Below are positions 6,940 through 64,000 of a stretch of 64,000 nt of DNA, one piece after another. Location: positions 223,634,001 to 223,698,000 of the forward strand of contig OX597814.1 in NCBI GenBank assembly GCA_951406725.2. Reading direction: 5' to 3'. Every line of letters starts with the position of its first letter. Position 1 is the stretch's first letter. This DNA comes from Octopus vulgaris (Eukaryota). Below the pieces are notes generated by a model. That model had not been told where the DNA came from. It did not search any database and saw only the letters and a program-made list of their open reading frames with translations. Position numbers and translations under genes: made by a program.

Positions 6940-7328
6940 TTTCAAATTTTGGCACAAGGTCAGCAATTTCGGGGATGGGGTTAAGTCGATTACAGCGACT
7001 CCCCAGTATTCAACTGGTACTTACTTTAACAACTTCGACAGGATGAAAGGCTAAGTAGACCTCGGCAGAATTTGGATTCAGAATGTGGCGACGGACGAAA
7101 TACCTATTTCTTTCCTACCCACAAGGGGCTAAACACAGAGAGGACAAACAAGGACAGACACACGGATTAATTCGATTATATCGACCCCAGTGCGTAACTG
7201 GTACTTATTTAATCGACCCCGAAAGGGTGAAAGGCAAAGTCGACCTCGGCGGAATTTGAACTCAGAACGTAGCGGCAGAAGAAATATCGCTAAGCATTTT
7301 TCCGTCGCGGTAACGATTCTATCAGCCT
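6940..7328 (-). mobile_element. Nested or dimeric SINE family B
   Basis: Two B cores in tandem. The second unit (Tx1-like tail) begins at 7105, directly after GACGAAATACC of the first. Confidence 0.8.
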
Positions 7329-18802: not shown

Positions 18803-19237
18803 TTTCTTTTCTACTCTAGGCACAAGGCACAAAATTTTGGGGGAGGAGGCAAGTCGATTAAATCGACTCCAGTACGCAACTGGTACTTAATTTATCGACC
18901 CCAAAAGGATGAAAAGCAAAGTCAACCTCGGTGGAATTTAAACTCAGAATGTAAAGACACGTAATACTGTTAAGCATGCCGCCCGGTGTGCTAACGTTTC
19001 TTATTTCTTTACTGTCCACAAAGGGCTACGTACAGAGGGGACAAACAAGGACAGACAAACGGATTAAGTCGATTATATCGATCCCAGTGCGTAACTGGTA
19101 ATTATTTAATCGACTCCGAAAGGATGAAAGGCAAAGTCGACCTCGTAGGAATTTGAACTCAGAACGTAGCGGCAGACGAAATACCGCTAAGCATTCCACC
19201 CGGCGTGCTAACGTTTCTGCCAGCTCACCGCCTTAAT
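18803..19237 (-). mobile_element. Nested or dimeric SINE family B with TSD
   Basis: Two B cores with a junction at 19000/19001 after GCTAACGTTTC. The whole unit is flanked by the direct repeat CTGTTAAGAT (18793-18802, 19238-19247). Confidence 0.85.
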
Positions 19238-28705: not shown

Positions 28706-29125
28706 AACCTTTCTACTAAAGGCACAAAGCCTGAAATTTTGGGGCGAGGAGACTAGTCGATTACATTGAGTCAGTGTTTCCCTGGTACTTATTTTATCGA
28801 CACGCAAAGGATAAAAGGCAAACTCGCAGGAATTTGAACTCTGAACGTACGAAATGCCGGTAAGCATTTTGCCCAGCATGCTAACACATCTTAATTTTTT
28901 TATTGCCCACAGGGGGCTAAACACAGAGAGGACAAACAAGGACAGACACACGCATTAAGTCTATAACATCGACCTCAGTGCGTAACTGGTACTTATTTAA
29001 TCGCCCCCGAAAGGATGAAAGACAAAGTCGACCTCGGCGGGATTTGAACTCAGAACATAACGGCAGACGAAATACAGCTGCGCTTTTCGCCCGGCGTGCT
29101 AAAGTTTCTGCCAGCTCACCGCCTT
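28706..29125 (-). mobile_element. Nested or dimeric SINE family B
   Basis: Two B cores with a junction at 28890/28891 after GCTAACACATC, the same position as in the 18803 copy. Confidence 0.8.
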
Positions 29126-29984
29126 AGTAATTATTGTAACCGTTTCTTTATTTATAACATATAAATAAAATGTCGAGTGTATTGGAGCGTTTTTTTTTTA
29201 GGGGGCGGGGTTTCATCCTGTAGTGTGACCACCGATGTAATCGATCACTGGCAAATTCTGTTCTTGATATTCTATTCTTGATATTCTGGGAATTTCTCTA
29301 AGACTGTTGATATATCACACAGATTTAACCGGCAATATGACGTCGAAAACAAAAAGAGTAAAAATCTTCTTCTCATGACAAGATGATATCTCGATTTTCT
29401 CCTTTTGTTGTAGTCTCGTTGCATTTCAGTATTGACTTTAAACTATGTGAGACGTTAAATGTGGAGAGCGCAACAAGTCTCAACTATTTGAATATGAAAT
29501 ATGAAGTTGTGTGCCAACGACCTGAGAGGTTAAAAGATTCACTTTCATCGTGCAATGTCATTATTCGGTGCGGGAAGGGGGCTAACTATGGAAATCAGAG
29601 ATTTGGAAAACTTCACGGAATAAAGGAAATATGTAGAAGCATGAGTAGTAGTAGTGGTAGTAGTAGTATTTTCGATCAGTGATATTACCAGCCACCTCTA
29701 TCTCAGATTTGCTAATGATGTTAACTACAAAGGTGCCTGTTCATCATCCAGCTGATGATTTATTGCACTTGGAAAAAAAAGATAATTTAGAACTAGCAAA
29801 AAAAATGACTCGGTAGTGGAAGTAGCAACAGAGACTGAGTGAGAGAAAGATATTTAGAAAAAAACAAAGTTTAAAAAAAAATTAAAAGAAAATAAAAGTA
29901 CGGGATGCTTTCCTTTGAATTCGTAATGAACTGCCGCGAATGGGAATGGCTTTGCTAATCAATCCATTTATCAAACTAAAAAAA

Positions 29985-40194: not shown

Positions 40195-40413
40195 TAATCC
40201 TCTCTACTAAAGGCACAAAGCCTGAAATTTTTGTGGAAGGGGACTAGTCGATTACATCGACCCCAGTGAAACACTGGTACTTAATTTATCGACCCCGAAA
40301 GGATGAAAGACAAAGTCGACTTCGGCGGAATTTGAACCGAGGAAATAAAGGCGGACTAAATGCCGGTAAGCATTTTCCCCTGCGCGCTAACCATTCTGCC
40401 AGTTCGTTGCCTT
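40195..40413 (-). mobile_element. SINE family B
   Basis: B core plus the CTACTAAAGGCACAAAGCC tail. Confidence 0.8.
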
Positions 40414-40440
40414 ACTCAGTAATAATAATGGTAATCCTGA

Positions 40441-46821: not shown

Positions 46822-47054
46822 TGTTTCTTTATTACCCACAAGGGGCTAAACATAGAAGGGACAAACAAGGACAGACAAACGGATTAAGACGATTACATCG
46901 ACTCCAGTGCTTAACTGGTACTTAATTTATCGACCCCGAAAGGATGAAAGGCAAAGTCGACCTCGGCGGAATTTGAACTCAGAACGTAGCGGCAGACGAA
47001 ATACGGCTACGCATTTCGCCCGGCGTGCTAACGGTTCTGCCAGCTCGCCGCCTT
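46822..47054 (-). mobile_element. SINE family B (Tx1-tail subfamily), full-length monomer with 16-bp TSD
   Basis: Flanked by ATTCGCCTTTGTCATA at 46806-46821 and 47055-47070. Confidence 0.93.
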
Positions 47055-47660
47055 ATTCGCCTTTGTCATAGTTTACTGCGATGCTTCTCAATTATTTATT
47101 GTTCTCGTGTGAAAAGTCTTTTCAAAATGTAGGTTCGCACAGTAGCAGATATTGTATTGTTTTCCTATTCACCCCTGATCCAACAAACCTATTATTAAAG
47201 ACGTTCCAGTCATGATAGTACCTTTTAATAACCTAGGACACCATAACTCATATATATTTTTGAAAGAGAGTAGGACGTAATTTGAAGAATATTTTCCCCA
47301 GTTCTATCACGTGAAAGCCCCTTTGTCGTCAACTAGTTTCTATTAAAAATTCATGACGGCCCTGACAAGCCGAACATTGATCTCTGGTTATATTGCTAAT
47401 GCTTTGACATTCGCATATTCTATACTTCTATAAATAAGCACTTGTATTACCTGGCACCCACACTACCATGTCGTTGTTCTTCACCTGTTCCTTGGAATAA
47501 AATTATAATGTCTACTAATTTATATCAGACCTCCTTTGACACATGGCTTATTTAAGACTAGAGTTATATCATTATATTCTGAAGTCATCTAGTCATCATG
47601 TTTAGTCGTAAATACTACTATCTTTTACTCTCCTGTCTGACATTATTATAAGAGTAGCAA

Positions 47661-52395: not shown

Positions 52396-54324
52396 CATAT
52401 ATATGTATATCCATATCAATAAATACACATACACATATACATTTTCATATAATACATACATGCATATACGTATATATATATATATATGTATTCACAAACT
52501 TCTCTCTCTCTTTCTTTCTCTCACTCGTTGATACTTCGACGTGAAAACTGAGAAGTAATGCGTTTTTGTTTATATGTGTATGTGCACATGTGTGTGGTGG
52601 TGGGTCCCTGCATGTGTGTATGCAAGATGTTAATATTGCGAATAAGTTCTGTACATACGAAACTGAAAGGACGGTTAGTTTATTTCAACATGTTTGCTCC
52701 TTTCACTCATCAGCAAATGCTAAATTGTAACACTTCTTTCTCAATACTCCGTTTGCTATGCTAGTAATTTTTGAAGAAGCTGATAAGAAATTCGTCAGTG
52801 GAAACTAAGCCACCCTTCAGCACTTCAACCTCATCCATTGCACCATCTCTTTTCCTATAAACATCAGCATTAGAAAACTACCTGCTATTTACTGTCCTAA
52901 AAAAAAGGTAACACAGCAATATTCGCTAGGAATCAGCTCTCCTTGCGACACATGCGACAATAACCATTACACAGGTGAACGAACTGTATACGATCTGTGT
53001 ACACAAGAGAGGTGAGCATTAGACGGCTTTTTAAATTTCATTATCTTTGGATATATCTGACTAGTGGCATGACAGTACTTGTAAATCTTATCCCGAATCA
53101 GAAGCATCTATCGACAGCGTTGCTAGATAAATATATTTTTATTCAATATCCACGAAAATTAACTGAATGGATTGGTCAGTGAAAGAAAGGCAATGCATAA
53201 AACTAGTATTTGAAACTTCTCTGCAGATAAGAAGGAGAAATTGAAAAATAAAACACGGATGATCTTCAGACAGAAAATATATTTAGATACCCTTGCAGCA
53301 GAATGGACTTGGTTAAGAACTGTGAAAGAACATGATCATTTTAGGAGCAACGTTGTAAAATTTCACTCAGAAGTCGATACGAGGCCACAGCTAAAACTTA
53401 ACTTATTTCTTCTACTTTTTGCTTTTGTAATTTGTCTTTTTTTTTCGACATGACATTTCTTTTCTTTGAATTTCTGAAATATTGCACTCCTAACAAAAAA
53501 ATTAATAAGTTTTCATAATTTCTTAAATATTTAAATTTATGCACATTTTCATTTTTCATTATTTGTAGTCTTTTGATAAAACAAAACTTGCTTGACATTT
53601 AACCAATTTAATTCACGGCTATGAACGATGCATTTAATTAAAAATTACTTCATACGTTTATAGTTTCAAATTAAGCTGACCATTTATTATAAATTTCGAA
53701 GTTGGAGGTGACGATGAAATATAACTTTAAAGCTTTGGAGTTAATATAAAAGGAATTGATTTCTTTCTCTCAATGCTACCATATTTAAGAATGTTACCAA
53801 TATGTTCCCACAGGGAGAAAAATGGAGAAAGAGATGTGGCGATAGAGAGTCGTAAGAAAGAGAAAGATGCTGAAATAAAGAAATAAAGAAAGAGAATAAA
53901 CTAGGACTTAAGGAAGAAAAATGAAGCAAATGAATAAATCACAGAAAGGAATTAAGAATAAGAATAGAGAATAATGAATTGAAAGAGTACAAGAAAATAG
54001 GTAGAAAGATAGTCCGTCATATAGCTTTATATATATATATATATATGAGCAGGGATTGTTAGATAAATAGATGAATAGATAAATAGACAGAAAGAAAAAG
54101 AGGAGGAAGAGAGAGAAAGAGATAACGCAGATATTTTAGGCGCTTAATCTCAAGAGTTCTTCAAACACGTAATGACAAGTACCTGTTTGGTCGTGAGGTC
54201 GTTAGTGAAAACTTGCTTTTTTGAACCGGTGTGAAGGGCCAATTGCTTTACGTACTCAGGCTAAACATTATTCACTAATGAAGCACGTCTTGCTACAGCA
54301 GTGAAATATATCTTATCACTCTAT

Positions 54325-54562
54325 TAAGGCAGCGAGCTGGCAGAAACGTTAGCACGCCCGGCGAAATGCTTAGCAGTATTTCGTCTGCCGTTACGTTCTG
54401 AGTTCAAATTCTGCCGAGGTCGACTTTGCCTTTCATCTTTTCGGGGTCGATAAATTAAGTACCAGTTACGCACTGGGGTAGATATAATCGACTTAATCCC
54501 TTTGTCTGTACTTGTTTGTCCTCTCTATGTTTAGCTCCTTGTGAGCAATAAAATTTAAAAAA
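54325..54562 (+). mobile_element. SINE family B (Tx1-tail subfamily), full-length monomer with 17-bp TSD
   Basis: Flanked by ATATCTTATCACTCTAT at 54308-54324 and 54563-54579. Confidence 0.92.
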
Positions 54563-55177: not shown

Positions 55178-55317
55178 CGACGGGTTTCTTTCAGTTTCCG
55201 TCTACCAAATCCACTCACAAGGCTTTGGTCGGCCCGAGGCTATAGTAGAAGACACTTGCCCTAGGTGCCACGCAGTGGGACTGAACCCGGAACCATGTGG
55301 CTGGTTAACAAGCTACT
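54905..55317 (-). mobile_element. SINE family A, interrupted in its tRNA-like head by the LINE array
   Basis: Well-conserved family-A copy. It stops at ...GGTTAACAAGCTACT, where intact copies continue with the last about 20 nt of the head (minus-strand GTGGCTGTGTGGTA). Confidence 0.9.
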
Positions 55318-55546
55318 TTATTTCATATAATTTGCCATTTAGGCATTTACAAAGAGGGGACAAACAAGGACAGACAAATATAAAGGATGAAGTAGCTTAA
55401 CACAGTTACAATTTTCGAATGAAATTACGGATAAGATTATAAACAATGAATTTTACGAAGGCAATGTTTAAAAATATTAATGATCATGTCGAAGGACGGA
55501 CACCCAGCCATCCGGGTAGAACCTTTACTTTCTGATCCGGTCACAC

Positions 55547-55768
55547 TTACCTGGTGCCAAACATACCCATCTTGTATGCCACAGGCTTCCATCTTTTCAC
55601 AAACATATCTCGTGACAGACACCTCTTCTCCAGCCTGATTTTGCTACTGAGGTGGTAACTAAAAAAGTTAATCAACCCCTGGCCGGAGACAAAGGTGCCT
55701 GTCACTATACCTTTCGTACGCGTCTTCCATACTGTTTCTTTCAGTATGGCTACTACAAGAAAAAACAA
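55547..55768 (-). CDS. Frameshifted C-terminal extension of LINE ORF2
   Basis: FFLVVAILKETVWKTR... continues ORF2 in the -1 frame across a T6 run. It is colinear with the decayed copy (KTVFLCQVAVEKEV at about 40900). Confidence 0.75.
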   Translation of the reverse strand: MFFLVVAILKETVWKTRTKGIVTGTFVSGQGLINFFSYHLSSKIRLEKRCLSRDMFVKRWKPVAYKMGMFGTR

Positions 55769-58700
55769 GCCTTTCTTTCCCTGTTAAGGAAAGGGGGCGG
55801 CACAATCTCGATGATAGACTCAGCTGATAGCTGTACTCTTCCCATCACTGACAACAGTTGTTCTACAAAAGCTATCAGTCCCGATAACTCCGGACACTCC
55901 ACGAATGCGTGCAAGACGGTCTCCCTATTCTGCTCACATCGCGGGCATGTCGGCGAGACGGCACTACCGTGCCTTGACAGCTTGTCGCGAACAGGTAAAG
56001 CCGCACGGAAACATTGCCAGGCTAGGGATTTCTGGTAATTATCCAGGTACCCCGGCCCGAACGTCCTCCGGAACAGGTTGATCAACTGATTTTCATCGTA
56101 GCCCAGGGTCTCCCCCAAGGCGTCTTCGGACTTAATCTCCACTAACCCGCTATAGAAATCCGTGGTGGAACTCCTGTTGCCGGCGTTGCCCACCCGAGAT
56201 AGTAGCTGGAGCGCCTGACGGCACTCCAAATGCCATTCACTCAGTTTAGGTCTCCGCTTGATCCATGCACCGATGTCCGTTAGGGATGTTAACTGGGGAA
56301 GGTAGAACCGGACGTGCGGCGACCACACCTGCTCTCCATCCAGGTAAAGCCAGAGGTGCCTCAACCTTAACGCGAGTTTTCGCATCCTCAGCCAAGGCAT
56401 CCCTAGCCCACCCTTTAGCGGTTTCTGGCAGCAGACAGAGCGCTTTACAAGTGGCTTTCCTCCTTTCCACAAAAATCGGAAAAGGATTCTCTCCAACTTG
56501 TTCAGCCACAAATCGGGGCAAGGCACCACGGTCAGACGGTAGGTGATTACTGATGCTATAAACATCTGCACCACCTCCGCCTTCCCTAGCAGGGATAACG
56601 CCCGCCCAGACCAGGTCTGGGTTAGAGCGGTCACCTTGTTGGCCACCTCACTCCAATTTTTCTCAATCTGGAGGTCTGGCCCGAACCAGACTCCGAGCAG
56701 CTTAACAGGACCTTCCGTCCAACGCCCTACGACGTTATTGGACGGCATCGGCTTGCCCCTCCAGGTGCCGAGTTGCAAACCGACCGACTTGTCCTTGTTA
56801 ACCTTTGCTCCTGCCACCGCCTCGTAGCTTTTTATGGCCTCTTCCACCACTGGAAGCTGGCCTTCGTCTGCCACGATGATGGAGGTGTCATCCGCATACG
56901 CCGTAGCTCCTCTTCCACACCATAGATCATGCGGCGCGCCCCCTAGTGCCTCCAACTTCCGCAGCAAAGGCTCAAGAGCCAATACGTATAGGAGCGAGGA
57001 CAGGGGACACCCTTGACGAACTGAACGCTCGATCCTGAACGGCTTCGAAAAGGAACCGTTCACCTTGACTACAGACTCGATGTCGCTATACAAAGCAGCG
57101 ATCCAACCTCGAAAGGTCGGGCCTAGGCCAGCCTCTCCGAGGACCGCCGCCAGGTACCGATGGTCGACCCTATCAAATGCTTTGGACTGGTCTAAATGTA
57201 CCAGTGCTCCCCCTGCGCCAGAAAGCTTCCCCACCCTCTCTAAGGAGTAGCGTATAAGGTGGAGATTGTCGTGGATCGTTCTGCCGGGGATAGCGCACGT
57301 TTGCGCTTCCCCGACAAGTTTGTCCACGACCCGCGCCAACCTTTTTGCTAGCACCTTGGCCAGAATCTTTAACTCTGTGTTTAACAGAGTTATGGGCCTG
57401 AAGTTCCCTATCTCGTCCCCCTTGTTCGGGTCCTTCCTGATCAAGGTCACCGCCCTCCGGCTCGCAGACTTGGGAATTCTCCCATTCTGCTGCCAGTTGG
57501 CGTAGACGCTAGCCAGCAGGTGCCCGAACAAGTTTGGCATACTTCTATAAAATTCATAGGGCAGACCATCGAGACCCGGCGACTTCTCCCCGGGGCACTT
57601 GCCCAACACCTCGATTACTTCCTCGGCTGTGATTGGCCCTTCACAGCACTCAGCCTCTCGTGTCGAGAGGCGCGGGCCACCAGACAGGAAGTCCCTAAGG
57701 GCCTCACCATGATCCAGCGTCCCGCACCTCCCGAACAACTCGGCGAAGTGCTTGTGGAGTGCCTCACACATCTCGTCCCGCTTCTTGATCGTGCATCCGT
57801 TTTCATCAACAAGAGACCCAATTGTGGCATCGTTTCCACGCTGTGTTTCTATCGTACGGGCCCATCCGGCAACATTAATTCCCTCACGGCCCAATGCTCG
57901 TACTTTAGCCCGGACTCTACATCCCTCATGTTTGGTTTTGAGGTGACGGTCTAATGCCGTTCTCGCCGCTAAAATGTGAGATGCAGAGCCCAACCTCAAC
58001 GCCTCCTCTAAGTTCTTAACTAGTTGCCCTTCTATTCTAGCCCTATCTAGTCTTAGTTGTTTACTAAATCTAATGGACTCGAATCGAATGGCTCTTTTGA
58101 GGGTGAACCACCACCGGTTATTAACCACGGCTCCGGTTAACGCCCTCTGCACTAACACCTTAATCCGGCTACGGTATGCCTCGCGTGTCAAAATAGACTT
58201 GTTCAGCTTCCAGTAGCCGGTTCCTATCTTAAGTGTGCTATCTATGTCCAGTCTACACGTGACCATTCTATGGTCAGTATAGGGCACCTGGACGAGCTGT
58301 GGACAACTAAAACTAGACTTATCTCTAGTTCTTATCACTATCCTGTCTAGATAAGACTTGAACCTTCCGTCGCCACTCATCCAGGTCCACTCTGGGACGT
58401 TCGGATGGTCAAGTCTGTAACGATCTGCTAGCTGAAACCGTTTAAGCAGATCCACGAGACGTGAGTTCACTTTCCTATAGATCGAGCCAACGCTATCGAT
58501 GTGTACGTCAACGATAGCATTAAAGTCCCCTAATATCACTAAAGTCTTCGACGTCACGAGAAAGCCCTCTAGGCGCCGATAAAAATCAGTTTGGAAACCT
58601 CTAGCACAAGGTGCATAGAGTCCGATCAACCTGAAGGCCTTACTGCTGTATGTCACATCAAGGACGACCAGCCCACCTTCTGGGTCTACATAGACTGTAC

Positions 58701-58947
58701 TTGTCTGTAGAGCCAAGTCTTTACGGATCAGTACCACTACGCCCCCTCGCCCTCCGGTCTGGCCAGGAGACATGATTTTCTCGTAGCCATTCAGGAGAGG
58801 CGAGAAGGTTTGTAGGCTGTCCAGCTTGGTCTCTGTAGCAACCATCACATGTATATCATGTGATCTGAGGTCGTCGAGGAAACAAGCCTGCTTCCACTTC
58901 GAACTCAGACCACGCACATTTAAACAACCAAGGTTAAGCGAAGCCAT
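55753..58947 (-). CDS. LINE ORF2: APE endonuclease, reverse transcriptase and C-terminal CCHC zinc finger (1064 aa)
   Basis: LNVRGL, ETKL, LYAP, LGDFN, YLDR and TDH (APE). KSPGLDG, FRPITLLN, DQSKAFDRV, RQGCPLS and YADD (RT). CPRC..ETVLHAFVEC (zinc finger). Confidence 0.97.
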   Translation of the reverse strand: MASLNLGCLNVRGLSSKWKQACFLDDLRSHDIHVMVATETKLDSLQTFSPLLNGYEKIMSPGQTGGRGGVVVLIRKDLALQTSTVYVDPEGGLVVLDVTYSSKAFRLIGLYAPCARGFQTDFYRRLEGFLVTSKTLVILGDFNAIVDVHIDSVGSIYRKVNSRLVDLLKRFQLADRYRLDHPNVPEWTWMSGDGRFKSYLDRIVIRTRDKSSFSCPQLVQVPYTDHRMVTCRLDIDSTLKIGTGYWKLNKSILTREAYRSRIKVLVQRALTGAVVNNRWWFTLKRAIRFESIRFSKQLRLDRARIEGQLVKNLEEALRLGSASHILAARTALDRHLKTKHEGCRVRAKVRALGREGINVAGWARTIETQRGNDATIGSLVDENGCTIKKRDEMCEALHKHFAELFGRCGTLDHGEALRDFLSGGPRLSTREAECCEGPITAEEVIEVLGKCPGEKSPGLDGLPYEFYRSMPNLFGHLLASVYANWQQNGRIPKSASRRAVTLIRKDPNKGDEIGNFRPITLLNTELKILAKVLAKRLARVVDKLVGEAQTCAIPGRTIHDNLHLIRYSLERVGKLSGAGGALVHLDQSKAFDRVDHRYLAAVLGEAGLGPTFRGWIAALYSDIESVVKVNGSFSKPFRIERSVRQGCPLSSLLYVLALEPLLRKLEALGGAPHDLWCGRGATAYADDTSIIVADEGQLPVVEEAIKSYEAVAGAKVNKDKSVGLQLGTWRGKPMPSNNVVGRWTEGPVKLLGVWFGPDLQIEKNWSEVANKVTALTQTWSGRALSLLGKAEVVQMFIASVITYRLTVVPCPDLWLNKLERILFRFLWKGGKPLVKRSVCCQKPLKGGLGMPWLRMRKLALRLRHLWLYLDGEQVWSPHVRFYLPQLTSLTDIGAWIKRRPKLSEWHLECRQALQLLSRVGNAGNRSSTTDFYSGLVEIKSEDALGETLGYDENQLINLFRRTFGPGYLDNYQKSLAWQCFRAALPVRDKLSRHGSAVSPTCPRCEQNRETVLHAFVECPELSGLIAFVEQLLSVMGRVQLSAESIIEIVPPPFLNRERKACFFL

Positions 58948-58963
58948 TACAAAAGTAAAGGTT

Positions 58964-60292
58964 CTACTTACATTTCGTTGGAGAGGTGGGGGCCGACCTC
59001 ACCACACGTTTGTGGGCCCCTTCTTTCTCCTCTTTCTTCAGATAGTCCGGCAAGTTCGCGATATGCCGGATGGCGTTTGGGTGTCTGTCTTTTAATTGTT
59101 TGAACGTTGTTTCCGCAATCCACGCGTGTCTATTTCGATCTTTGTATTTGTTGTACAGTCTTGCTGACTGATGCTGAACCACAATATCGTTTATGTATTT
59201 GTCTTGTGTGTCGAATTCAATTAATATGAGTTCATTTTCTTTTTTGTCTTCTTTTTCTGGGCCAGTTGAGCGGGATTTTTTTTTCCGTGTCTGTGGTGTG
59301 TCTTTGTTTTTATTATTTTTTGTAGGGGATGTGGACGGGGATGCTGCACGAATTCTTTTACGAACTGGTGTAAATCCCCCCTCTGATACCTCCATGGTAT
59401 CGTCTGTGGTAGCAATAGTTTGTTCGGTAGGCGCCGCAGTTTTTAGGGGGGTGGGAGGTTTTAATAGTGTAGGGGTTTGTGAGTGCGAGGGCTAGGTTTT
59501 TTCTTCAGTCTGTTTTGGGGTTGGCACCGTAACAGCAGGAGTGGGATTTTTTGTTTTTGTAGGGGTAGGTGTGTTTGCAAGGGTAGGGACTTTTTTATTA
59601 TCTGAGGGGCCTGGTGTCTGCGGTTTCTTTTGCTTGTCTGGACAGTCTACACGAATGTGGCCCTTTTTGCTGCAGGCGTAACAGGTGGGTTTTCGGCCTT
59701 CGACCTGTACCCTGAGGGCTACGTTCTCGCCCACGAGCACCCTCTCAGGAAGGAGCTGCAGGTCCTCCGCTGTTCCTTGAATTAATATATTAATGTTACG
59801 CCCGAGCCAAAATCGAGGGGTAGAGCATGTTACTTCTAGTATTTTTATTTTGTCCGCCCTTTTATATAACAGGGCGGCCACTACCTCTACCGGATCTACG
59901 TCCGGCGGGGCTTCTACAATCCTGACCCGGGACGACCTGCGTCCCCTATAGCTTGGAAAAAGTACCACCTCCTTGGTTTTTAGGGGGTTCACAGAATGCC
60001 CGCGGGCCATTTCTTCCCCCGAGAAGCGGACATCCACAGTGCCATATGCCCGTCCCCTGGCGACGTACACGATGTCCTTCCAAATCGGGGACAGGCATTT
60101 CTCGATGGTGCTTTTTTCAAAGTGTTTGAACCTTCTGCTTTGTGGACAGAAAGTTTTAAACACTACGGTCCGCTTCTCGGTCTCCACGATACTGGCGGAG
60201 GGTGATATTTTAACATCACCACCCTCCTCTTGCATTCTTTTAAATAGCTCGACGAGCTGGTTGACATCGATGTCAATCTTCTCGGTAGCCAC
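58964..60292 (-). CDS. LINE ORF1 (Gag-like, CCHC zinc knuckle), interrupted by one in-frame TAG at 59492-59494
   Basis: Track ORFs 59492-60292 and 58964-59395 are in the same frame and joined by an open P/T-rich linker. Knuckle CYACSKKGHIRVDC. The track start codon is GTG. Confidence 0.85.
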
Positions 60293-60771
60293 TGCGGCTA
60301 CCTCAGAAAATTTTTAACATTGCTCTCCTCAAGAGCACTACTTTCGTGAATAATTTCAACAGACATTATTCTGTTGAAATTAGACAACACAAAAATTACG
60401 AATATTGGTTTCCCACAAAACTGGGAAACCTATAGAAAGTTTTTCTTCCAAAGTAGTTCAAAAAAGCAGTTCAAAAATTCCAATTCCCACCCCCATTCGG
60501 GGGAGGGGCACGAAAATAGTCTGGCAGGACTATATATAGTCACGTAAATAAAAAGCCACAGTGGCTAACAGTTCAACGGTAAGAAATTATTCAATTATTT
60601 CCCGGTAAAACCGGAGAACAAGACAGTTCAGCAACGTTTAAAGGCAAATTTTCAGTAGTAGGAATTCAACAATTAATAACACAGCAAAACTTCTTACCGG
60701 GAAGAAAACGCGTCCAAACCGTAGTACGGTAGGCAAAGTCACTCTTCTGTCAGTGAGGTTAGCAAGCTACT

Positions 60772-62755
60772 TTATTTTAAATAATTTGCCACTAGGGCAG
60801 CACACAGAGTAGTAGCTACGGGCTGGACAAGGACATTAATGGATGATGGTGGTGGTTGATGAAGATGGTGATGGGAGAAGTCGAAAGCGCCCGCCGACTT
60901 TTGCTTCTCTAAAACAATGTTTCAATAAATACATTTAATAAACAATGATTCAAATTGCATAAAAATGTTCAACAATTCTTCTCGTCAGGTCCCCGAAGCA
61001 AATTGTCTTGCCGCCTGCAGACAACTCTGCGACGACAAGTCGGGGCCTGCAAAGAGAAAGGTAAAGTCTTTCTTTTCAAAGGTCTCTGCGACCCTTGACA
61101 AAGTATCTTCTGTTACTTTCTCCGCAGCTACCTGCGGAGGCCATAACGGACTCCTTGAGCCGACCGTGTCCTTACGCTCTCGGTCACCCAAGCCAGTCAA
61201 GAATCTTTCAACCTTCTCTCCCTTGTGGTAAAGGAGGAGAAGCATCTCCTCTTCACAGGGAGGGACCTCACACTCCTCCGTCGGTGGCACACTTCCCACT
61301 GGCGGAGCCTTGTCCGCGGGTGGCACACATCCCACCCGCGGCTCCGTCGGCGACACAGAAACGTCAGTCGTCCGACCTCTCCTTTTTCTCCTCCTTCTTT
61401 TGGGGGAGACTGCTGACCCAGGGGACTCCGTCACCAGACACGGGGGATTGCTATCCCCCTTCGCCCCCTGAGCGTTCTTTGGCGGGCAACCATTGTTGCT
61501 CGCCTTTCTCTTTCTTTTCGTGGAGGCAACCTCCTCCACGACTTCCATCGTCTCCCCCTCCAATGAGGGGGCGGCGGGCGCCTTTTCCCCTCTCTGCTCC
61601 GGGGCACCACTACGGCCCCTGGGACAATTCTTCCTGATATGTCCGGGCTTCAGGCACAGGTGACACTTGGGGGGGCGACCCTCGAGTATCACCGGGTACC
61701 TGTGCCCAGCCATTCTCAGGAAGTCCGGGAATTTCATTTGCCCCACGGCTACCGGTGTCCACAGGGTCAAGGTTGCCCTCGACCCCTGCCAGGCGACCGC
61801 GGGAGCCACCTTCACACTTAGCAGTCTGGGTCCGCTATCCCCCAGGCCTCGCCGGATGGTCTTTTCGATCCATTCCGCCTCCGTGCCCGGGGGCAGCCCA
61901 CACACCCAGGCTCTTTTCACTTTTCTGCCACAATACGAGGGGAGGAACAAAATTTCCTCTCCCTCCAGTGGCTCGCTAGCAAATCTGCTAGCTTCCTCGG
62001 GGGTACCAAACAGCAACCAGACCGTTGCAAATTTGCTCCCCCGAGAAATAAATTTTATAGTTGGCAGGTAGTCCCCCAACTCTTTCTCTATAGTATTCTT
62101 GTCGAAGAGGGCAATGGCTCCACGCGACCTAGAATAGGTTCGTAGGACCACCGTCCTCTTCTCAAGACTTTCAATCCACTGCTTTGGTGGGACGACCTCC
62201 CATTCCAAAGCGGTGGTTTCTTTTGTTGCCATGTTTTTTTTTTTGTTTTTTTTAAATAAATGTATTTAGAATAAAACTAAAAAACGAGAAGAAAAGGAAA
62301 TCCGAAGAATGTCACAATGAAAAACGGAGAGAGTCAAATAAAGTTGAAAAGAAAGTCAAATAAAGTTAAAAAGAAAGTCAAAAACACAGCAAAATCCTTT
62401 TGGCCATTTGGTACTCCCGGCCTAAATCGAACCAGGATCGCACAACTTCCACAAAAATTGGTGTAAAATTGGTAGTTCTTCACAGCACCATACAATTTTC
62501 ACAATTCGAAGACGGATACGCCCCCCAAAATTTTCTCAGCGAGAAAATATATCTGCCACATGTCGGCAGAATCAGAATTCTGAATCCAGTAGGACTTCCT
62601 GCATGTAAAAAATAATTCTCAACAAAAACTCCCACTGGACCCAGAAAACAGAATCTTACCTTACATGGGGCTTCCAAAGTTTCAATTCAAGACGGCTTCA
62701 AAAGCACATCTTCACTGCTTCAGTAGCAAACACAACACTGACTCGCACATGCGCA
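60772..62755 (-). mobile_element. Non-autonomous ORF1/Gag-only retroelement, copy 1 (about 2.0 kb)
   Basis: 5' UTR of about 520 bp, a single ORF, and a 3' UTR of about 210 bp ending like the LINE (TGGCAAATTAT..AAATAAA). Bounded by GTTAGCAAGCTACT on both sides. No RT or endonuclease sequence. Confidence 0.88.
60985..62232 (-). CDS. Gag-like ORF1 protein with CCHC zinc knuckle (415 aa)
   Basis: Intact ATG ORF with knuckle CHLCLKPGHIRKNC and basic NLS-like tracts (KRKRK, KRRRRKRR). Colinear similarity to the LINE ORF1. Confidence 0.9.
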   Translation of the reverse strand: MATKETTALEWEVVPPKQWIESLEKRTVVLRTYSRSRGAIALFDKNTIEKELGDYLPTIKFISRGSKFATVWLLFGTPEEASRFASEPLEGEEILFLPSYCGRKVKRAWVCGLPPGTEAEWIEKTIRRGLGDSGPRLLSVKVAPAVAWQGSRATLTLWTPVAVGQMKFPDFLRMAGHRYPVILEGRPPKCHLCLKPGHIRKNCPRGRSGAPEQRGEKAPAAPSLEGETMEVVEEVASTKRKRKASNNGCPPKNAQGAKGDSNPPCLVTESPGSAVSPKRRRRKRRGRTTDVSVSPTEPRVGCVPPADKAPPVGSVPPTEECEVPPCEEEMLLLLYHKGEKVERFLTGLGDRERKDTVGSRSPLWPPQVAAEKVTEDTLSRVAETFEKKDFTFLFAGPDLSSQSCLQAARQFASGT

Positions 62756-62769
62756 GTTAGCAAGCTACT

Positions 62770-64000
62770 TTATTTTAAATAATTTGCCACTAGGGCAGCA
62801 CACAGAGTAGTAGCTACGGGCTGGACAAGGACATTAATGGATGATGGTGGTGGTTGATGAAGATGGTGATGGGAGAAGTCGAAAGCGCCCGCCGACTTTT
62901 GCTTCTCTAAAACAATGTTTCAATAAATACATTTAATAAACAATGATTCAAATTGCATAAAAATGTTCAACAATTCTTCTCGTCAGGTCCCCGAAGCAAA
63001 TTGTCTTGCCGCCTGCAGACAACTCTGCGACGACAAGTCGGGGCCTGCAAAGAGAAGGTAAAGTCTTTCTTTTCAAAGGTCTCTGCGACCCTTGACAAAG
63101 TATCTTCTGTTACTTTCTCCGCAGCTACCTGCGGAGGCCATAACGGACTCCTTGAGCCGACCGTGTCCTTACGCTCTCGGTCACCCAAGCCAGTCAAGAA
63201 TCTTTCAACCTTCTCTCCCTTGTGGTAAAGGAGGAGAAGCATCTCCTCTTCACAGGGAGGGACCTCACACTCCTCCGTCGGTGGCACACTTCCCACTGGC
63301 GGAGCCTTGTCCGCGGGTGGCACACATCCCACCCGCGGCTCCGTCGGCGACACAGAAACGTCAGTCGTCCGACCTCTCCTTTTCTCCTCCTTCTTTTGGG
63401 GGAGACTGCTGACCCAGGGGACTCCGTCACCAGACACGGGGGATTGCTATCCCCCTTCGCCCCCTGAGCGTTCTTTGGCGGGCAACCATTGTTGCTCGCC
63501 TTTCTCTTTCTTTTCGTGGAGGCAACCTCCTCCACGACTTCCATCGTCTCCCCCTCCAATGAGGGGGCGGCGGGCGCCTTTTCCCCTCTCTGCTCCGGGG
63601 CACCACTACGGCCCCTGGGACAATTCTTCCTGATATGTCCGGGCTTCAGGCACAGGTGACACTTGGGGGGGCGACCCTCGAGTATCACCGGGTACCTGTG
63701 CCCAGCCATTCTCAGGAAGTCCGGGAATTTCATTTGCCCCACGGCTACCGGTGTCCACAGGGTCAAGGTTGCCCTCGACCCCTGCCAGGCGACCGCGGGA
63801 GCCACCTTCACACTTAGCAGTCTGGGTCCGCTATCCCCCAGGCCTCGCCGGATGGTCTTTTCGATCCATTCCGCCTCCGTGCCCGGGGGCAGCCCACACA
63901 CCCAGGCTCTTTTCACTTTTCTGCCACAATACGAGGGGAGGAACAAAATTTCCTCTCCCTCCAGTGGCTCGCTAGCAAATCTGCTAGCTTCCTCGGGGGT
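62770..64000 (-). mobile_element. Non-autonomous ORF1/Gag-only retroelement, copy 2 (runs off the window end)
   Basis: Almost identical to 60772-62005. Two 1-bp homopolymer deletions (near 63055 and 63382) frameshift the ORF. Confidence 0.88.

Follow-up and report, generated by a model that had tools for sequence, protein, structure and literature searches.

HeT-A, HAL1, and Ag-Sponge are described as ORF1-present non-autonomous LINEs, originating from the Jockey, L1, and CR1 groups, respectively (PMC5786205). Why some non-autonomous LINEs retain ORF1 is an open question, and natural examples are few. Site-specific insertion into repeats or gene families is, according to the available text of PMC4494074, found among LINEs of the Tx1 clade: Tx1 inserts in Tx1D, Keno targets the genes for U2 snRNA, and Tx1-Mar, like the element SINEU-3, is found in Mariner-N4_AMi. 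Tandem SINEU-3 insertions sandwiching a target site duplication (TSD) have been interpreted there as sequential (PMC4494074). The repeat annotation of Octopus vulgaris lists 13 recently active L1-Tx1 families, with no mention of ORF1-only or SINE-targeted families in the accessible portion of that report (PMC13282606). A literature search likewise found no SINE-targeted ORF1-only system; Repbase, Dfam, the O. vulgaris repeat library, and subscription journals may hold such families.

The window analysed here is a 64,000-nt stretch of O. vulgaris DNA (contig OX597814.1), the features of which are collected in Table 1. Along the genome, the locus comprises a SINE that is split at one base and contains a LINE of 5.44 kb and, after it, seven units of 2 kb; neighbouring elements are all separated by GTTAGCAAGCTACTT, and all lie in the orientation of the SINE. 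The first of the seven units, on the minus strand, encodes a single 415-aa zinc-knuckle protein without ORF2, and reading of its ORFs and domains revealed neither a reverse transcriptase (RT) nor an endonuclease. The second is 99.8% identical to the first, with two 1-nt losses. Contigs of a sequencing run, guessed to be RNA, span 60764–62784 and hence the whole unit. A 97% copy in the opposite orientation is located approximately 4.7 kb past the end of the array (G000:C1:223713503-223715236, locus L022), where it abuts the 5′ end of an element of a further type.

The preferred reading, to which a probability of about 0.85 is attached, is that these units (family U) form a recently multiplied ORF1-only family from an old octopus clade under purifying selection, with a one-base target in the head of a very abundant SINE, and that they are likely copied by the ORF2 protein of the LINE. 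The first-pass annotation had recognised the unit for what it is, as an ORF1-only retroelement, in an account that lacked the strict SINE target, the mixed arrays, the radiation of sister families, and the bias of U towards 5′ junctions.

Table 1. Features of the LINE and ORF1-only array (positions are those of the window)
Feature	Positions	Strand	Remarks
3′ part of host SINE	55178..55318	-	B-box-like GGTTCAGTCCC and body
LINE, full-length, autonomous type (L1/Tx1 group)	55319..60757	-	5.44 kb; private lesions in this copy
Inverted target copy, LINE 3′UTR	55390..55398	-	AAGCTACTT on sense strand, ~80 nt from 3′ end
LINE ORF2	55753..58947	-	APE endonuclease, RT, zf-RVT; 1064 aa in this copy, against 1133 aa in intact members
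LINE ORF1	58964..60235	-	Split by stop at 59492 and 1-nt loss near 60311; 467 aa in intact members
15-nt junction, LINE 5′ end/unit 1 3′ end	60758..60772	+	GTTAGCAAGCTACTT
ORF1-only unit, copy 1 (family U)	60773..62755	-	First of seven tandem copies
3′ hairpin TGCC-5nt-GGCA	60787..60799	-	Common to LINE; TGTC/GACA in sister families
Inverted target copy, U 3′UTR	60811..60819	-	GTAGCTACT, ~45 nt from 3′ end
415-aa ORF1	60985..62232	-	Two predicted RRMs (~14–187), CCHC knuckle (189–204), low-confidence linker, clade-specific C-terminal region
15-nt junction, unit 1 5′ end/unit 2 3′ end	62756..62770	+	
ORF1-only unit, copy 2, 3′ 1.23 kb	62771..64000	-	Five further copies beyond window

The protein encoded by U carries one CCHC knuckle and is homologous to, albeit diverged from, the ORF1 protein of the neighbouring LINE, as had been claimed from the letters alone: the two share 29% identity over 191 aa (E 1e-23), and all motif pairs quoted in that claim were found in the alignment. 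The C-terminal 100 aa of U ORF1 shows no similarity to the LINE ORF1 C terminus (E 61), and similarity of unit and LINE at the DNA level is confined to the 3′ end and the target (35 nt at 91%, 54 nt at 81%), which bears out the suggestion that C termini and UTRs are unrelated but for the 3′ end. In a structure model for which 12 natural sequences served as input, confidence is high for residues 10–200 and low for the remainder. This model resembles tandem-RRM proteins such as hnRNP A1 UP1 (Foldseek E approximately 1e-4), with a middling score against single RRMs (VIA Z 7–7.5); for residues 315–415, in the low-confidence part, the ESM Atlas gave no usable match.

Between U and nine ORF1-only relatives, dN/dS is 0.10–0.27 (all p ≤ 0.006; Nei–Gojobori, approximately 180 codons). 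Values of 0.23–0.62 were obtained for the C-terminal region, with constraint in two of four comparisons, and selection is undetectable in the linker (0.6–0.9). Synonymous sites are saturated between U ORF1 and LINE ORF1. Most assembled U copies contain 1-nt frameshifts in the ORF, and besides the reference, only 4 of the 27 copies compared are indel-free. These gaps are mainly homopolymeric (44 of 67 gap letters fall within runs of three or more, and one frameshift recurs at 62038), and no indel inside the ORF occurs among the rows listed for the short-read contigs; the frameshifts are therefore read as assembly errors, a plausible interpretation of the sequences rather than a proven one.

A DNA search with the unit gave 21 full-length matches at 93%–100% identity, and with three arrays read out, the census of full-length copies called for by the first-pass annotation comes to 38 distinct copies at 21 loci, dispersed inside SINEs on many chromosomes. 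All full-length copies examined share exactly the same 3′ junction, without poly(A). U-type 150-nt tails number 57 genome-wide (14 in SINE context); these counts mix in other families, none of the 13 extra loci with such a tail being a full U, and hence reliance is placed on the 38-copy census. At the protein level, the 150 matches listed for U ORF1 extend down to 63%. Octopus sinensis, O. vulgaris, O. bimaculoides, and Argonauta are the sources of the named homologues, the O. sinensis relative being at 67%.

In 40 regions chosen around ORF1 matches or arrays, ORF1s of the U clade occupy units of approximately 1.5–2.3 kb without ORF2. A U-clade ORF1 followed by ORF2 in the same unit was found neither in those regions nor at 60 occupied target sites (the first in list order, of 413), and in 20 regions with ORF2 matches of 61%–88%, the ORF1 upstream of ORF2 is always closer to LINE ORF1 than to U. 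The earlier suggestion to look for a copy linked to an ORF2 thus produced none in these three sets, although genome searches score top candidates only and a rare LINE with a U-type ORF1 could escape them. The same 60 sites start with an ORF1-only unit in 29 cases, a full LINE in 9, a LINE fragment in 5, and a sequence with no protein match in 17, such that ORF1-only units outnumber the helper LINE at the shared target by 29 to 14. Clustering of units longer than 1.2 kb produced 33 groups, only one of which is the LINE.

An ORF1 tree of 18 rows (nine ORF1-only, eight ORF2-linked, and one from O. sinensis) splits the U clade, to which the O. sinensis protein belongs, from the rest by a long branch (100/100). 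Within the radiation, N- and C-terminal ORF1 halves are shuffled between families, and chimeras join a U N terminus to a C terminus of family B, or an N terminus of family F to a U C terminus. The copy census, the regions and sites surveyed, the tree, and the low dN/dS together support U as an ORF1-only lineage that is independent and kept under purifying selection, as first proposed, and that is present in many copies. A second ORF1-only type, D, with a 408-aa ORF, was observed in the C10 array (L107:4774-5997, a 1522-bp unit) and at L115. Its ORF1 is 42% identical to LINE ORF1 and 28% to that of U, and it keeps the LINE-type N-terminal extension that is absent from the U clade. On these sequences, D is possibly a family of separate origin; in the tree, long branches meet. 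A protein search of 1.84 billion representatives returned only one close protein (62%); the other 50 matches are distant, and those aligning over the domain are no closer to U than to LINE or D ORF1. One O. sinensis gene model with an integrase-like domain (P0022) includes, by splicing, the 46 N-terminal residues of a B-type ORF1 and is probably an annotation artefact.

The ORF2 of the partner LINE belongs to the L1 group, with human L1 ORF2p as its best solved relative (E 8e-67, against 1e-19 for R2), and its closest RT relatives are unnamed or hypothetical proteins; anatomy and site specificity, rather than an RT tree, are the grounds on which membership of Tx1 is inferred. At least 23 full-length copies exist, at 96%–100% identity. 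The insertion base is identical in all 12 copies examined, 11 of which sit alone in their SINE.

It had been noted that the adjacent LINE has a broken ORF1, and reciprocal complementation was thought conceivable, with the LINE giving ORF2 and the unit giving the ORF1 that the LINE lacks. The split is real in the window copy and is what speaks for such an exchange, but it is not a property of the family. The stop at 59492 is seen in none of 11 other LINE copies compared, and nor is an additional ORF2 frameshift that the window copy carries near 55758; of those 11, L066 and L072 possess a continuous 467-aa ORF1 and L075 one of 466 aa, and intact ORF1s (466–467 aa) are also present in L159 and L183. 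With a damaged ORF2 in the window copy, intact ORF1s elsewhere, and 11 of the 12 best LINE copies alone in their SINE, complementation is very improbable. Equally hard to credit is that the unit is a simple internal deletion of the LINE, or that the array arose by neutral tandem duplication at the locus. Elements of this kind usually originate by internal deletion (PMC5786205), and the array is indeed tandem, but the ORF1s are only 29% identical with saturated synonymous sites and are under purifying selection, and the copies are dispersed. The seven copies of the window array, each with zero or one private substitution, represent at least five haplotypes common to other chromosomes, and local duplication of one copy as the origin of the array is rejected on this recurrence. 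The claim that the unit is no recent deletion derivative of its neighbour therefore stands; an ancient deletion origin is likely.

The host SINE is split just after an A-box-like sequence (TGGCTGTGTGG) and ahead of the B-box-like sequence, and its 5′ part follows the seventh unit, approximately 10.8 kb past the window end. Both box labels were assigned by eye against the Pol III consensus. Rfam gave simple-repeat matches only, and no tRNA match, for one empty SINE copy. A tRNA-derived CORE-SINE, OR1, is named in PMC4824008, and the host repeat may be of this kind. Perfect target sites number 413 occupied against 51,475 empty, an occupancy of 0.8%. Very short inserts also occur at the SINE site (L150, 106 bp; L099, 5940–6039; L238, 129–175), one of them joining a B 5′ end to a B 3′ tail, and these are candidate non-coding bipartite derivatives. 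A second abundant dispersed repeat of approximately 230 nt, with copies 81%–91% alike (54322–54553, 7111–7304, and 19008–19237, and further at 28898–29129, 40237–40414, and 46828–47055), is probably a second SINE family.

U, its sister ORF1-only families, and the LINE have a common insertion point and a common 3′ hairpin tail, the TGCC/GGCA and TGTC/GACA forms of which are a compensatory pair. The LINE and the ORF1-only families end in ...AATA, which when joined to the target AAG reads AATAAA. The inverted target copy of U-clade tails reads GCAAGCTACT in several sister families; its counterpart in the LINE is present with one mismatch in 7 of 11 other LINE tails, and family D has no such copy. 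Minimum free energy folds often pair the inverted copy with the read-through tail, as a prediction only. At the other end, the outer junction base (T or A) was informative in 14 solo copies and goes with the family rather than the site in 13 of them, whereas inner junction variants derive from the site by duplication (as at L091, L105, and the C7 locus). The same division applies to the first junction of the window, of which the inner part is a site duplicate and the outer part mostly element-encoded. A plain 15-bp TSD is accordingly rejected in part, the 15-nt repeat being only partly a TSD, and the elements would thus rebuild a target at their 5′ junctions. Positions 62740–62756, and the 5′ ends of B, D, and chimeric units, contain GCGCATG(T/C)GCG-like and CCGGAAG-like motifs that resemble NRF1 and ETS sites and may act as a Pol II promoter inside the element.

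The insertion point and 3′ hairpin tail that U has in common with the LINE make trans-mobilisation of U by the LINE ORF2 protein likely, judging from sequence. In the mechanism proposed, U RNA would run on into the target through the composite AATAAA signal, and the read-through tail would anneal to the nicked strand and prime reverse transcription without poly(A). R1Bm is reported to need downstream target sequence (PMC7265360). ORF1 would bind its own RNA in cis, and this binding may be why it has been kept under selection. The first 5–6 nt of the element would mimic the target, such that every insertion would rebuild the target at its own 5′ junction and later RNAs could insert successively at the rebuilt junctions.

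Family U stacks on earlier arrivals, and its sister families go in alone, a family-specific habit that is unexplained. In 35 of 38 copies, and at 18 of 21 loci, U sits directly upstream of another element. The first position at the site is held by B in 19/19 cases, family A′ in 11/11, and complete LINE units in 20/20, counts drawn in part from a set selected as first-position; approximately 160 of 200 B-type tails genome-wide lie in SINE context, as counted with two slightly different patterns. A second junction is present in only 3 of the 60 occupied sites, and U is the second element in two of these. Arrays in which LINE and ORF1-only units are mixed, and which are old and decayed (L087, L084, L213, and L220), show that stacking at the SINE site is long-standing. 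Three tandem full-length LINEs at one SINE site (L239-L240; G000:C9:2664555-2680884) share a stop in the endonuclease region. Fixed B-U or LINE-U dimers co-transposed from one donor are rejected, near-identical U haplotypes being found on different partners and the B partners themselves differing.

Several junction variants run through arrays: an extra A occurs in 7/7 junctions after the first element of the C5 array, in six consecutive junctions in C10, and in 3/3 5′ junctions of the LINE triple, and a TTACC variant runs through three junctions at C7; at L008 and L013, the extra A was not passed on. Inherited variants and distinct haplotypes within arrays point to serial insertion at a regenerated site, while coeval copies and a correlation between partner age and U age (rho 0.64, p 0.014, n = 14) leave room for rapid or one-event stacking. 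In the latter case, RT would jump between co-packaged RNAs via the shared 15-nt sequence, and U would be a hitch-hiker that rarely starts an insertion. The seven window copies, near-free of private substitutions and yet of differing haplotypes, fit this account, as does the age correlation, and the mosaic haplotypes and U/B and F/U chimeras suggest that RNAs meet during copying. However, site-specific junction variants reach the last junction, which fits serial duplication and not independent donors; moreover, some partners are clearly older than their U (8.3 against 1.0 private changes per kb at L010), and in the C10 array an old U gives way to young ones. Arrays built in one event are on this balance unlikely.

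For the junction preference itself, the leading guess is that the read-through tail, copied from whatever sequence followed the donor, finds its best pairing at a junction of the same type. The types of partner are clustered on the U tree (5/6 LINE partners but 1/9 B partners fall in the older clade; p 0.011), as expected under guidance by the tail, and also under changing partner availability. A stronger version is offered tentatively and is more doubtful than not: U, a protein-coding parasite of a LINE that itself lives on a SINE, would possess heritable, RNA-encoded aiming. The read-through tail of every copy would keep a record of its junction and lead the next copy to one of like kind, and the inverted target copy would pair either with the tail or with the target strand that is displaced. 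U would thereby have become a specialist of the 5′ ends of retrotransposons other than itself, in ordered stacks at fewer than 1% of sites. Alternatively, the RNP might be steered to the 5′ ends of elements already in place, either by U ORF1, perhaps through its C-terminal region, or by open chromatin at promoters. The bias is specific to the family even though one ORF2 is presumably common to all families, later positions are also taken by other families with a U-type 3′ part (5/13), and HeT-A Gag, by possible analogy, is reported to steer RNPs to telomeres (PMC5537684). The clustering of partner type on the U tree, on the other hand, fits inherited tails or partner availability equally well, and steering of this kind is likewise a doubtful proposition. 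Since solo and stacked landing presumably involve the same enzyme and the same target, the roles of ORF1 and of RNA–target pairing are testable by swaps.

Serial trans-mobilisation of U by the LINE remains the preferred reading, and on sequence grounds U is a real, active ORF1-only retroelement. It fits the ORF1-present non-autonomous design, with an ORF1 protein and no ORF2, a family of its own with retrotransposition junctions, and an ORF1 under selection. A whole clade has kept ORF1 long enough for synonymous sites to saturate and is still multiplying, and its precise, full-length, poly(A)-free, site-specific insertion is of interest for RNA-templated gene insertion.

While the design is known from HAL1, HeT-A, and Ag-Sponge, the setting is new: a SINE-targeted system of the L1/Tx1 group with an old radiation. 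HAL1 of mammals is likewise a non-autonomous L1-group derivative with only an ORF1 protein and is described as having arisen more than once (PMC5753468, PMC5786205). U differs in its sequence-specific insertion, the lack of poly(A) at its junctions, its ORF1 of RRM and CCHC type, and its membership of an octopus clade with many radiated, domain-swapping families; nor is it HAL1 proper, its ORF1 being homologous to that of an octopus LINE and not of the mammalian L1 type. HeT-A of Drosophila, as reported, is also Gag-only and under selection and forms mixed head-to-tail arrays of one orientation with an RT-encoding partner (PMC5537684). It is, however, a telomeric element of the Jockey clade with a host function, whereas U belongs to the L1/Tx1 group, has an internal SINE target, and is dispersed in SINEs rather than confined to telomeric arrays; unlike in the HeT-A setting, the partner LINE of U carries an intact-family ORF1 of its own and inserts alone. 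Ag-Sponge of Anopheles shares the ORF1-present non-autonomous design but is CR1-derived, with no SINE target mentioned in the accessible part of its description (PMC5786205). Closest in targeting are the LINEs of the Tx1 clade, described as likewise of APE type, aimed at another repeat, and accompanied by a non-autonomous passenger on the same target (PMC4494074), and from these the octopus system is set apart by its SINE-head target, its protein-coding passengers, and the one family that is found almost only at occupied sites.
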